Shown: positions 37,695 to 63,919 of the stretch, in pieces
How positions within the stretch are numbered: the first letter of the stretch is position 1
Layout: each line of letters begins with the position of its first letter
Origin: Candidatus Latescibacterota bacterium
GTDB taxonomy: Bacteria; Latescibacterota; UBA2968; GCA-2709665
DNA length: 64,000 bases
Assembly: GCA_965203805.1 (NCBI GenBank)
Contig: OZ241917.1
Location: 608,001-672,000 of the forward strand
Reading direction: 5' to 3'
Position numbers and translations under genes: made by a program
Notes under the pieces: model-generated
Databases searched by the model: none
What the model was told of the DNA's origin: nothing
Seen by the model: only the letters and a program-made list of their open reading frames with translations

Positions 37695-37835
37695 GTATGG
37701 TGTCCCGGAACAGGTTGCCTGACGTCGGCCGACGAGTCGCCCGACTGGCATTCTCCGTCCCGTCGACAAACTCAATGCAACCGGACTGGATCAACCGGCA
37801 ATCGAATGATGACGTTATTTCGGGGACACGACACT
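37695..37835 (+). mobile_element. MITE-like repeat family 1, copy A (nuoL-nuoM spacer)
   Basis: TGTCCCGGAACAGGTTGCCTGACGTCGGCCGACGAGTCGC core shared with copies B-D; right end TTTCGGGGACACGACACT is an imperfect terminal inverted repeat. Confidence 0.7.
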
Positions 37836-41227: not shown

Positions 41228-41543
41228 GGTGTCATGTCCCAAAACACCTCACCATTCGGCCGCCTGCCTGCGCAGTGCCCTGCCTGCCTGTGCGTGTACG
41301 CACGCCTGCCTGCGCAGTGCCCTGCGCAGTGCCCTGCGCTGCAGGCAGGCAGACAGGCGCTGCAGGCAGGCCGATTCATCCCGTCGCTCGACGTTGCTTG
41401 TGCTGGGCTTGTCGCAGTGCCATCGCTCGCCGACCTTGCCCACGTCGCCTGTGCTCTGGCGCCGGGTCCGGAGCCTCTCGAAGGATGCGAGCCAGGCGAC
41501 TCGACGGCCGAATTCAGGCAACTAATTTCCGGGACAGAATACT
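41228..41543 (-). mobile_element. MITE-like repeat family 1, copy B (inverted, with internal expansion)
   Basis: Reverse complement matches copy C over about 110 nt and at the GAATGGTGAGGT.TTTTGGGAC end. Confidence 0.75.
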
Positions 41544-61153: not shown

Positions 61154-62407
61154 TCAATCGATTCTGATTCGCTGAAGATCGAACGAGTCGACATTGTAGG
61201 GCTCGAAAGTATCGTCGTCGCCGGGTGTGTAGACCGCGACATAGAGATTCCGATCGTCGTTATCGATGACGATGCCGCGTTCTTTGAGATTTCCGGCCGC
61301 GAGAAGATAGTTCGTCTCCAGTTTTGTCCGCGTATCGAATTCAACGATAAATACACCCGCTTCATCGGCGTCTGTGGGCGCGACGAACAGACGTCGGCCG
61401 TCGCGGCTCAACGCAAGCCCCAGAGCGGGAGACTTGATTTCGTATTTGCCCGTCAGCGTCAGGTCGCGTGCGCTGAATACCCACAGATCCTCGACGTTGC
61501 CGCGGTCATCCGGGTCTGCCAACCCCAGAAAGAGATGGTCGTTGGAAGGTCCCATGACAAAATCGTTGATCCTGGCGGAGAAACTGAAGCGGGTTGACGT
61601 GGTCTCTGTCGTTGGGAAATGCCCTGAGGCGTCGTATTTCAAGACATTGTTCCTGGCGGCAACGAAGAGCTTACGGTCGCCGTGGTTCATCAGCAATGCG
61701 CCCGAACGCACATTCCCGCTGGTTTCCAGATTGTCTGCAATGGATACCGCAATCAGCAGCGGTTCATCCAGCGAGGACACATAGACAATCGAATCGGTCC
61801 CGCAGACGATGTGGGATATGTCATTCAGCGAAAACGGAACGGTCTTAAGTATGGTGAACGCATTCAGATCGATTATTTTCAGGTTCGATTCGCCGTTCAG
61901 TCCCACCACCAGACGGCGCTGGTCCGGAGTGACGTCGATGTCGATGGGGTGGGATCCTACCTGAAGGCTCCCTTCGACCACCATCTGTTTGCCAGTGTGA
62001 ATGCGGAGTATCCGGTTGTTTCCGTAGTCGGCAAGGTACAGATACGGCTGGACCGGATCCATGACCATATCAGAAATATTCACGCCAAGTTTCAGGATAT
62101 CGAAATCTCTGATTTCGTAAAACCGCTCCGGCTCTTCGTCGTCGAAATAGAGCGAACAACCCGACACGACAAGAGACATGGACAGGGCAAAAAAAAGGAA
62201 CCGGCCACTTGTTTTTCCAATGAGGCGAATGCCGGATCGCCAGGTGTTCAGTCCCGGAAACAGGTTGCCTGAACTCGGCCGTCGAGTCGCCAGGCTCGCA
62301 TCCTTCGACAGGCTCCGGACCCAGCGCCTGAGCGCAGGCGACCCGGGCAGGGTCGGCGAGCGAATGGTGAGGTATTTTTGGGACGGGACACTAGAGCGAG
62401 AAGACAT
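61154..62407 (-). CDS. YncE/YVTN-type beta-propeller lipoprotein; MITE copy C lies in-frame in its 5' end (start uncertain)
   Basis: Lipobox VSGC; repeated blades (VGSHPIDIDVTPD, GLALSRDGRRLFV). Confidence 0.75.
   Translation of the reverse strand: MSSRSSVPSQKYLTIRSPTLPGSPALRRWVRSLSKDASLATRRPSSGNLFPGLNTWRSGIRLIGKTSGRFLFFALSMSLVVSGCSLYFDDEEPERFYEIRDFDILKLGVNISDMVMDPVQPYLYLADYGNNRILRIHTGKQMVVEGSLQVGSHPIDIDVTPDQRRLVVGLNGESNLKIIDLNAFTILKTVPFSLNDISHIVCGTDSIVYVSSLDEPLLIAVSIADNLETSGNVRSGALLMNHGDRKLFVAARNNVLKYDASGHFPTTETTSTRFSFSARINDFVMGPSNDHLFLGLADPDDRGNVEDLWVFSARDLTLTGKYEIKSPALGLALSRDGRRLFVAPTDADEAGVFIVEFDTRTKLETNYLLAAGNLKERGIVIDNDDRNLYVAVYTPGDDDTFEPYNVDSFDLQRIRID
62243..62394 (+). mobile_element. 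MITE-like repeat family 1, copy C
   Basis: GTGTTCAGTCCCGGAAA ... TTTTGGGACGGGACACTAG terminal inverted repeats; ends in CTAG. Confidence 0.75.
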
Positions 62408-63356
62408 AGGACGTGCTCAGTTCGATCAGATAGTCGGACGTCAGCTGGCTTTCGTTCACGTTTTGAAATACGACGATGGGCAGGTGAAATTCAACACTCA
62501 GATTGTCCAGGACATTAAGCCCCAGTTCCGGCGAAAGATACGTCCACTTCCCGCCGCGTTCTCTTGTAATCTTGCCGAACTGGTATCGATCCCTTGACGT
62601 GATCAGGTTTTTCAGACTCAAGCCGCCGAAGAACCAGCCGTCGCCGGCGTATTCCAGAGACAGGCTTGCGTGCAGTTCGTTTCCGTATTTGTAGCCGTAT
62701 ATGTTCTGCCGTGTGGTGATGCGGGTAAAGACGCCTCCGGAGACCGTCAGATCTTCAAGTCGTTGAACTACATTGAACGCGAGAATCGGATCCACGCTAC
62801 CCGATCCGATCTGAAGATTGTCGGAGAAACGTTCGCCGTATTGATCTAATGCATTAACGGATCCGTTTGCCAGCTTCAATCCAACCCCGACATTCATACC
62901 GGGAAAGCCCGCCTTTAGAGGTGCGGCGTAATTCAACATGACCACAATATCGCCCAGCCCGGAAGCATGCCGGACATACTTCCCTCCCTCATATTGATTG
63001 TGGTTCTGGCCGCGCAGCAGCACTTTTTCATTGGTCACGGAACGAAACGGGACGGCAAGCGCAAGACCGATGCGTCGGGTCACACCGTACGAGGCAAAGA
63101 TGGTGGTCGTGGCATTATCGGTACGCTCGCGATTGACGTTCGGGATCGCACGAGACCCGTAGTGGGGGTCGGACAGGAACTCGTAGCCGTAGTGAACGCT
63201 GAGCTTCAGGTGGTCCTGGACGCCCAGGCTGTTCTGCATCAGGCTTCCGCCCGGAAGCACGGGACGGCGTCAGCTGACGCCGCCTTGAGCGTTGGCGGCC
63301 GGGGCCGTGAAGGATTGCGTGATGATGAACAGACAGAACGCTGAGTACAAACGCAT
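62391..63356 (-). CDS. Putative selenoprotein outer-membrane beta-barrel (MetA-pathway/'transporter'-like); TGA at 63272-63270 = Sec29
   Basis: GAGG RBS + ATG + signal peptide MRLYSAFCLFIITQSFTAPAANA, in frame through QGGVS-TGA-RRPVLPG with the 289-aa ORF. Barrel motifs GLGDI, LQIGSGSVD, YKYGNE. Confidence 0.72.
63243..63258 (-). promoter_or_regulatory. Putative bacterial SECIS element of the barrel gene
   Basis: GCTTCC-GGGC-GGAAGC hairpin starting 11 nt after the UGA; G-initiated loop. Confidence 0.65.
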
Positions 63357-63418
63357 ACCGGGTTTCCTCAATCTCTGGATTTTGAACGCGAGGCTGGCGT
63401 CCGGGTTTCACGGGTTGA

Positions 63419-63447
63419 AATATACCTTACATGAGTCTGGATGGCAA
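63419..63447 (-). promoter_or_regulatory. Putative sigma70 promoter of the barrel-propeller operon
   Basis: TTGCCA-N17-TATATT on the minus strand. Confidence 0.55.
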
Positions 63448-63525
63448 GGCGGATTTTGATTCGTGACACGACATAGAGCCCAAATTTACATATCTTTACA
63501 TAGCCCGCCGTCGCGCTGTTTTTGC

Positions 63526-63598: not shown

Positions 63599-63672
63599 GC
63601 TCCCGTAGCTCAGCTGGATAGAGCAACTGCCTTCTAAGCAGTAGGTCGCAGGTTCGAGTCCTGCCGGGAGTG
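63599..63672 (+). tRNA. tRNA-Arg(TCT), CCA not encoded
   Basis: Acceptor GCTCCCG/CGGGAGT, anticodon arm ACTGC-CTTCTAA-GCAGT, GGTTCGAGTCC T-arm. Confidence 0.95.
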
Positions 63673-63686
63673 TATTGTGGCAGTTC

Positions 63687-63840
63687 GCGTTCTGTCCCGG
63701 AAACAGGTTGGCTGATTTCGGCCGACGAGTCGCCCGACTCACAAAGCCCCTGAGTGAGTTGACCTGGGCAAGGTCGGCGAGCGAAGGGAACGCTGCGAGA
63801 CGGGATGAATGGTAAGATATTTCCGGGTCGGGAAGATTAG
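63687..63840 (+). mobile_element. MITE-like repeat family 1, copy D (tRNA spacer)
   Basis: TCTGTCCCGGAAACAGGTTGGCTGATTTCGGCCGACGAGTCGC...GGGCAAGGTCGGCGAGCGA...GAATGGTAAGATATTTCCGGG. Confidence 0.7.
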
Positions 63841-63841
63841 T

Positions 63842-63919
63842 GGTGGGTGTAGCTCAGCTGGTTAGAGCGCCTGGTTGTGGCCCAGGAGGTCGGGGGTTCA
63901 AGTCCCCTCACTCACCCCA
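63842..63919 (+). tRNA. tRNA-His(GTG) with encoded G-1 and CCA
   Basis: G-GTGGGTG/CACTCAC-C-CCA; anticodon arm CCTGG-TTGTGGC-CCAGG. Confidence 0.95.

Follow-up and report, generated by a model that had tools for sequence, protein, structure and literature searches.

The window analyzed here, a stretch of 64,000 nucleotides from a Candidatus Latescibacterota bacterium (assembly GCA_965203805.1, contig OZ241917.1, positions 608,001 to 672,000), carries on its minus strand a genuine, widely conserved, and mis-annotated selenoprotein gene (62391..63356). The gene has 321 codons, and codon 29 is an in-frame TGA (63270..63272) that, as predicted from the sequence, is almost certainly recoded as selenocysteine (Sec). 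The product combines a known fold class with new chemistry at the N-terminus: models place it among the exported 12-strand outer-membrane beta-barrels of the COG4313/PF13557/FapF class. Sec decoding is supported because the TGA is conserved, the hairpin that follows it covaries, and the genome encodes a complete sel machinery.

Under translation table 11 the locus yields a 289-amino-acid open reading frame (ORF; 62391-63260), which starts with MLPGGSLMQ and is devoid of a hydrophobic leader. The first-pass annotation of the window had reported this missing signal peptide and had proposed a longer gene, and both points were confirmed by translating the minus strand. An ATG at 63356-63354 opens the leader MRLYSAFCLFIITQSFTAPAANA, followed by QGGVS and the single TGA (63272-63270); past it the frame resumes as RRPVLPGGSLMQ, with RRPVLPG leading into the barrel, and continues until the TAG at 62393-62391. 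The signal peptide is predicted to span residues 1-23 (63288..63356, minus strand) and to end in A-N-A according to the A-x-A rule. Taking cleavage at this site, Sec is residue 29 of the precursor and residue 6 of the mature protein, as previously proposed. The homologs likewise show a hydrophobic leader ending in A-x-A and then a glutamine. The putative expression signals described earlier are also present on the minus strand: a GAGG 9 nucleotides 5' of the ATG (63366..63369), possibly a ribosome-binding site, and TTGCCA-17 nt-TATATT (63419..63447), a sigma-70-like promoter candidate with 10/12 matches in a consensus scan. The promoter scan of the region gave 4 sites, compared with 1.4 expected.

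The TGA is conserved throughout the family. Among 168 genomes of the phylum, the barrel was matched in 18, in a total of 35 match rows, and exactly one TGA was present in 34 of 34 full matches; the 35th row covers residues 267-321 only. All 14 other genomes of the genus have two barrel copies each, as does the window's own genome, where the second copy (G000:C1:61344-62285) is 52% identical to the first. A further scan, with one genome per species, retrieved 70 loci, 61 of them belonging to the close family, in records labeled Latescibacterota or Gemmatimonadota, KSB1, Calditrichaceae, Fidelibacterota, Marinimicrobia/Neomarinimicrobiota, and "FCB group." In 60 of these 61 loci, which represent at least five related phyla, the TGA stands at the same column; the surrounding sequence there reads leader-AQGG[VI]S-U-RRPxLPGG. 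The column is unreadable in the remaining locus (L096), whose match begins at residue 123. A 30%-identical relative from another family of the phylum (L026) reads A-V-A-U-R-R-P. Around the TGA, codons vary while residues stay: the preceding Ser is encoded by AGC/AGT or by TCC/TCA, and the two following Arg by CGN or AGR. Both sides of the TGA are therefore translated in the barrel frame. The same TGA, flanking peptide, and hairpin were found in 57 distinct homologous sequences, a recurrence far beyond chance. The TGA is also unchanged in near-identical DNA contigs of two other studies, and contigs of two metatranscriptome libraries span it unchanged, which shows that the sequence is present there. 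A sequencing error or a strain-specific nonsense mutation was ruled out by this conservation together with the independent contigs.

The TGA is followed by a hairpin resembling a selenocysteine insertion sequence (SECIS), GCUUCC-GGGC-GGAAGC (63243..63258, minus strand), identified as such by covariation, energy, and likeness to the element of selD. The first-pass annotation had described it as six base pairs starting 11 nucleotides after the TGA (63258-63243). Its position and five core pairs, which covary in an alignment of 57 distinct 54-nucleotide contexts, were upheld, but the sixth pair is weak. The conserved 5-bp core stem (63257-63244, minus strand) begins 12 nucleotides after the UGA and the loop 17 nucleotides after it. 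RNAalifold returned the same five pairs as the consensus, CUNCC/GGN'AG with a 4-nucleotide loop. The hairpin, CUNCC-NGGN-GGN'AG, sits in the Leu-Pro-Gly-Gly-Ser codons, and its pair 24-33 joins the third base of the Leu codon to the third base of the second Gly codon. This pair is CG in 33 sequences, UA in 19, UG in 3, AU in 1, and GC in 1, that is, four Watson-Crick types and not one unpaired case among 57. Since both bases are at synonymous sites, protein selection cannot account for the pairing pattern. Over the whole helix, 93.9% of the cells were paired, compared with at most 69.9% in slid-partner controls, and the covariation score (0.253; shuffle mean, 0.127) was equaled in none of 500 shuffles. 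The second base of the loop is G in all 57 sequences. The loop is NGGN in 54 of them and GGUC in the other three, which are Marinimicrobia barrel genes with a loop identical to that of the selD element.

According to a published model, bacterial SECIS elements have a loop of 3-9 nucleotides with a G within its first two bases, a stem of 4-16 bp, a spacing of 16-37 nucleotides, and an energy of -7.5 kcal/mol or lower (PMC13188914). The window's element, with its 4-nucleotide loop, 5-6 bp stem, loop G, and spacing of 17 nucleotides, falls within these ranges, in line with the earlier claim that its spacing and G-initiated loop fit bacterial SECIS elements. The energy threshold is reached by the 48-nucleotide minimum-energy fold in 55 of the 57 sequences. 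Like the bacterial SECIS of the Escherichia coli fdh type, the element lies within the coding sequence, 17 nucleotides from the UGA, and has a 4-nucleotide loop starting with G and then G/U on a stem of 5-6 bp. Unlike it, the barrel element is very short, and RNAalifold finds no conserved lower helix. Such a compact SECIS (5-bp stem, 4-nucleotide loop) should be useful for testing prediction tools.

The genome encodes the complete machinery for Sec decoding, for which the first-pass annotation had proposed a search. The genes for tRNA-Sec (selC, 73.4 bits), selB (370.7 bits), and selA (559.2 bits) are adjacent at G000:C1:1837983-1841498, and selD (358.7 bits) is found at C1:2775468-2776391, all four scoring over curated cut-offs. 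The selD gene has its own TGA (C1:2775495), which supports UGA recoding elsewhere in this genome. Its SECIS consists of the UGA, then GUCAGUCC-GGUC-GGACUGA, with a loop that starts 17 nucleotides after the UGA and an apex almost as in the barrel element. Of the 168 genomes of the phylum, 128 have a selB scoring over the cut-off; among the 18 that carry the barrel, all but one do (17), the exception being an 80%-complete assembly. The earlier support drawn from a second Sec gene in the window was not confirmed: two crude scans (ORF pairs across a TGA and C/U redox motifs) gave no convincing candidate, which does not establish its absence, and the case for Sec does not need it.

Public annotation cuts the barrel family short at the UGA. 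The ten best of 72 public homologs are all 282 amino acids long and start at a Met past the TGA; part of the 72 carry a precomputed PF13557 label. Of the 11 homologs that were aligned, five reach the leader, with Ser (P0017 and P0019) or Trp (P0037, P0038, and P0059) at the Sec column. P0038 is 96% identical to locus L077 translated with TGA as Trp. P0037 is 91% identical to L076 and also has a Trp where L076 has its TGA stop. The Trp forms are thus artefacts of gene callers using a TGA=Trp code, since the matching loci carry TGA and P0037 reads through a natural stop. A genuine Trp at the column was ruled out on the basis of the loci matching P0037 and P0038, the DNA of both entries not having been seen. 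P0059 and P0077, in public protein collections, also have Trp at the column.

Several observations weigh against decoding as Sec. The hairpin alone reaches -7.5 kcal/mol in only 41 of the 57 sequences, and its sixth, outer pair is unpaired in 20. Folding of the 3' context, which the first-pass annotation had proposed as a check, gave a mixed answer for the window: the hairpin has an energy of -8.0 kcal/mol, but the 48-nucleotide single-sequence minimum-energy fold favors a competing G+C-rich pairing (-13.2 kcal/mol). The contigs from RNA libraries may stem from DNA. The co-occurrence of selB and the barrel says little, because selB is common in the phylum. The alignment of the TGA column with Cys, also raised at first pass, was not found: the column, conserved as TGA as described above, shows Cys in no homolog seen, whether among the protein homologs, in the alignments, or in profile matches to distant relatives, so that the classical Sec/Cys pair is missing. 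An aligned Cys homolog is a customary criterion of search pipelines; the mechanism does not require it. Within the close family, the only members without a TGA carry Ser instead (P0017 and P0019, protein entries whose DNA was not seen), and two more distant relatives have Glu or Ala at the column (P0086 and P0091).

Alternatively, the TGA could be a true stop, arising by nonsense mutation, from an error in the assembly, or as the end of a short upstream ORF, so that the ORF of 282-289 amino acids would encode the real protein; or the UGA could be read through with a standard amino acid. The missing Cys and the publicly called ORFs of 282-289 amino acids speak for this reading. We regard this as very improbable. 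A barrel deprived of its signal peptide could not reach the outer membrane, and in 57 distinct sequences conservation extends to the TGA, to the leader in frame with it, and to the peptide that runs from the TGA to the called start. In addition, the hairpin shows covariation at synonymous sites, the TGA persists in independent assemblies, and the genome decodes Sec elsewhere.

The read-through protein has a marginal match to PF13557 in Pfam (25.5 bits; cut-off, 22) and no NCBIfam family match at an E value of 1 or lower; among solved structures, none was meaningfully matched in a profile search. AlphaFold2 modeling of the read-through product from a 35-row alignment, another check proposed earlier, predicted a barrel of twelve strands according to the DSSP string, with a predicted local distance difference test (pLDDT) score of 85 and a predicted template modeling (TM) score of 0.80. 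The best structural matches found by Foldseek were FapF (5o65; E value, 5e-14; TM scores, 0.64/0.68) and 4rl8 (E value, 3e-13; TM scores, 0.64/0.74), with FadL and porins well behind. FapF, an amyloid secretion channel, is also a 12-strand barrel with an N-terminal plug. Unlike FapF, to which it is 14% identical, the barrel has no fap-type neighbors and no fap operon context; the neighbors are propeller lipoprotein, redoxin, tRNA, and endonuclease III genes. The protein behind 4rl8, Pput2725 of Pseudomonas putida F1, represents COG4313/PF13557 and shares with the window barrel the 12-strand fold, the weak Pfam match, and a short segment before strand 1. The first ~14 residues of Pput2725 fold into the lumen and block it from the periplasmic side (PMC4493636). 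By analogy, Sec at mature residue 6 would be located on an N-terminal segment that plugs the lumen. The two proteins differ in that the window barrel is only ~13-14% identical to Pput2725, has an N-terminal Sec and a lipoprotein partner, and is often next to a thioredoxin-like gene. It is also not linked to genes for the catabolism of hydrophobic substrates, and its context lends no support to the uptake of hydrophobic molecules, the role of COG4313 channels.

The barrel is part of a conserved cassette. In 46 of 48 type-1 loci it is directly followed by a gene for a beta-propeller lipoprotein; of the two exceptions, one locus ends too early and the other has a type-2 layout. In the window this gene lies at 61154..62158 on the minus strand (mature part from the lipobox Cys, the start codon being uncertain). 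The lipoprotein has the lipobox LVVSGC (Cys codon, 62158-62156), a mature start of the form CSLYxDDEEPExFYE, and weak matches to the SGL and Lactonase propellers. An ORF of 417 amino acids can be read from an ATG at 62407, which adds a 75-residue extension consisting largely of a translated repeat. Several relatives start at a Met aligned with ATT 62221-62219 of the window, and between this ATT and the lipobox there is no ATG, GTG, or TTG except one located 7 residues before the Cys. The dispersed repeat, of ~120 nucleotides, fills the spacer between the barrel and lipoprotein genes (62243-62364) and also occurs at 41423-41542, 63689-63743, and 37702-37757. A blastn search matched it 39 times in the genome, in eight cases with 88-92% identity along ~120 nucleotides, and at this place metagenome contigs show ~20-fold higher summed depth and many loose ends.

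Complex modeling supports binding between the barrel and the lipoprotein. The input comprised the barrel residues after Sec and the mature lipoprotein, and three runs scored 0.73, 0.73, and 0.65 (median, 0.73), compared with 0.00 for the best control. In a benchmark, 58 of 80 solved complexes attained this mark, as did 2 of 110 mismatched pairs; these counts hold only roughly here, since our own alignments were used. The runs agree in at least 77% of the contacts, and the pLDDT of the partner is at least 87. The modeled contacts involve barrel residues 66-76, 110-126, 254-255, and 302-303 (precursor numbering), which by the usual barrel topology would be on the outer face, and conserved stretches of the lipoprotein (5-19, 262-269, 286-290, and 312-318). 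Surface lipoproteins of this superphylum typically have an acidic stretch after the lipidated Cys, and the lipoprotein studied here has one. The arrangement resembles that of SusC/SusD-type systems in that the modeled lipoprotein sits on barrel loops that standard topology places outside. It differs from them in that the barrel has 12 strands, is not TonB dependent, and carries no plug domain, while the lipoprotein is a beta-propeller and not a tetratricopeptide repeat protein. A selenylsulfide link between Sec and a conserved Cys of the propeller was ruled out, as 43 orthologs of the propeller show no invariant Cys that is not lipidated.

A secreted TlpA-like redoxin (FWATWCxxC; PF08534) is encoded directly upstream of the barrel in 14 of 47 loci of type 1 and in all 12 of type 2. 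Among the former, those with a redoxin are from records labeled KSB1, Calditrichaceae, Fidelibacterota, some Marinimicrobia, and several bacteria given only as uncultured; beside the other Marinimicrobia copies the gene is absent. All 12 type-2 loci show the order NHL propeller, secreted redoxin, Sec barrel, and S-adenosylmethionine (SAM) methyltransferase. The second copy in the window's own genome (L032, G000:C1:59844-63785) has this order, with AQPGVS-U-RRP in the barrel and WCKTC in the redoxin. The genes around it, which encode an amidohydrolase, PhyH, an acyl-CoA dehydrogenase, a GcvT-like protein, and a methyltransferase, give no metal-specific hint.

More distant relatives carry Cys near the place of Sec. 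When 1.84 billion representatives were searched with a profile, 2752 matches had E values of 0.001 or lower and only 27 reached 1e-30 or lower; the N-terminal motif was surveyed in the 120 of 150 listed matches that have at least 290 amino acids. Directly after the leader, these listed matches showed CC, CxC, or CxxC in 65 of 120 cases, one Cys in 12, and none in 17; the crude leader test failed in the other 26, several of which visibly contain Q-x-C-C. The commonest distant form among the matches listed was [AS]-Q-x-C-C-[ST]-x-G-x-P. According to the first-pass annotation, Cys occurs in the N-terminal segment of related "transporter" barrels. This was found in the 65 distant relatives, but when the conserved Pro is used to anchor the alignment, the two Cys stand 2-3 residues N-terminal of the Sec column. 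Most of the Q-x-C-C relatives have no Pfam or NCBIfam name. Look-alike clusters consist of "transporter family" proteins, mostly from Bacteroidota, which is a lead only. No close paralog of the Cys-Cys type was found in the window's own genome.

For one Cys-Cys clade we analyzed 80 metagenome loci (L132-L211), 69 of which have a recognizable barrel ORF, running Pfam on one representative of each type of neighbor gene. In 62 of the 69 loci, the gene after the barrel encodes a DUF3179 lipoprotein; the products of upstream genes include a heavy-metal P-type ATPase in 16 loci, a small HMA protein in 14, and a TonB-dependent receptor in 13. DUF3179 itself is listed as a family with selenoprotein members (PMC13188914, Table 1). 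Judged from these neighbors, the Cys-Cys cassette looks like an uncharacterized outer-membrane metal module of marine Bacteroidota-like bacteria. Queries with the thioredoxin and the propeller gave no match in the 80 loci. The Q-x-C-C-S-G-G-x-P "transporter family" barrels are thus similar to the Sec barrel in superfamily (profile E values from 1e-39 to 1e-19), in the chalcogen motif after the leader, and in the downstream lipoprotein. They differ from it in having Cys-Cys for a single Sec, a DUF3179 partner, and heavy-metal ATPase, HMA, and TonB neighbors, with no propeller or thioredoxin partner.

These elements can be assembled into a mechanism. The UGA would be recoded by SelB and tRNA-Sec, guided by the short hairpin, and the signal peptide would be cut at the predicted site after A-N-A, so that the mature chain would run Q-G-G-V-S-Sec-R-R-P into the 12-strand barrel. 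The beta-propeller lipoprotein would cap the barrel face that standard topology makes extracellular. Within the channel, the selenol on the lumen-plugging N-terminal segment might bind a soft metal or metalloid in transit, doing the job of the Cys-Cys motif, while a thioredoxin-like partner would keep it reduced. As a whole, a recoded and exported Sec barrel in a conserved cassette, with a putative ligand role, is quite probably the best joint explanation. That Sec in the N-terminal segment serves as a ligand for a soft metal or metalloid, taken by itself and by analogy with the Cys-Cys barrels, has in our view about an even chance. The position of Sec in the lumen, its ligand, and the direction of transport are what we infer from such comparisons. 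The metal-binding channel suggested by the first-pass annotation was indirectly supported by the heavy-metal gene context of the Cys-Cys relatives; for the window protein itself, we infer it.

The ligand role has to be weighed against several findings. Transfer of a metal role from the Cys-Cys barrels is weak, because their motif is offset by 2-3 residues, they are 20-26% identical to the Sec barrel, they have another lipoprotein (DUF3179), and they are found without thioredoxin or propeller. No conserved Cys, His, or Met partner was found in the barrel, which leaves a single chalcogen ligand, and the lipidated Cys is the only one that is invariant in 43 orthologs of the propeller. Residues 24-45, which include Sec, were modeled at a pLDDT of 52-74. 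The main rival, which we consider unlikely, is a real selenoprotein whose selenol is a center of redox chemistry or chalcogen transfer and not a metal ligand. The selenol could form Se-S or Se-Se adducts with an oxidized or sulfane/selenium substrate arriving via the channel, or reduce a substrate that the propeller holds outside the cell, and would be regenerated by the TlpA-like thioredoxin. Most catalogued selenoproteins are indeed redox proteins (PMC13188914), and the two invariant Arg that directly follow Sec may suit an anionic substrate. The barrel, however, has no resolving partner of the CxxU or UxxC type, and the genes next to the Cys-Cys relatives encode heavy-metal ATPases and HMA proteins and not redox enzymes. 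The CxxC redoxin encoded directly upstream in many loci fits a redox center, but it is missing beside many Marinimicrobia copies. TlpA-type proteins also serve in the assembly of metal sites, so this neighbor does not discriminate between the metal and the redox role.

Alternatively, the UGA could act mainly as a selenium-dependent expression switch, the chemistry of residue 6 mattering little. The UGA comes very early, so that failed recoding would yield a harmless 28-residue peptide; Ser replaces Sec in two relatives, and a conserved Cys partner is lacking. If the UGA were purely a switch, there would be no need for G-G-[VI]-S-U-R-R-P to be kept with varied codons across at least five phyla, and the Cys-Cys retained in the same segment by the wider superfamily points to chemistry at the site, which makes the switch a distinctly slim prospect. 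An extension of the ligand reading, improbable though slightly less so than the switch, is a three-part selenol relay across the outer membrane, common to the phyla of the FCB group. In such a relay, the propeller would capture a thiophilic metal or metalloid and pass it to Sec on the barrel plug, from which the TlpA-like reductase would release it. The ligand could be selenium. No specific high-affinity selenium uptake system has been identified in bacteria (2026 review, PMC13188914); if the relay existed and its ligand were selenium, it would be this missing dedicated uptake route.

The barrel family is not in the selenoprotein catalogue of 2026, a review whose Table 1 lists 119 prokaryotic families (PMC13188914). 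No barrel of the PF13557 type is among these 119 families; the supplementary tables of surveys might list the barrel family. A full-text search found no literature joining "selenoprotein" with PF13557, COG4313, or Phenol_MetA_deg, and among the matches listed for selenoproteins with Marinimicrobia, Latescibacteria, or SAR406 there was nothing on the barrel family. Two other outer-membrane families are catalogued in the same Table 1 (PMC13188914), a TonB-dependent receptor and an MtrB/PioB-like barrel. These families (NF049945 and NF041027) are predicted Sec-containing outer-membrane beta-barrels (PMC13188914; PMC12013277), so an exported outer-membrane selenoprotein has precedent. The family described here is unrelated to them (no NCBIfam match at an E value of 1 or lower) and differs in barrel size and in its lone Sec at mature position 6, compared with CxxU or no such motif.

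Selenoprotein surveys depend to a large extent on pairs of Sec and Cys forms and on redox folds that are soluble, and in the barrel family no form with Cys at the Sec column was seen. The family spans Latescibacterota, KSB1, Calditrichota, Fidelibacterota, and the ocean-abundant Marinimicrobia, and the annotation and selenoproteome counts of these phyla should include the barrel gene. It would place selenium chemistry in an outer-membrane channel, and it ties the Sec barrel to a much larger set of uncharacterized barrels with N-terminal Cys-Cys found in heavy-metal loci. This offers a testable entry to the movement of soft metals or chalcogens across the outer membrane in these bacteria.

Further observations concern the surroundings of the gene. 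Two tRNA genes, tRNA-Arg(TCT) at 63599-63672 and tRNA-His(GTG) at 63843-63919, are encoded on the plus strand, immediately upstream of the barrel's promoter region; an Rfam scan of the window at gathering thresholds detected these two tRNAs and nothing else. Sequences near-identical to positions 61154-63450 of the window were found in sponge, coral, and marine metagenome runs of seven studies, which suggests an invertebrate-associated marine habitat.

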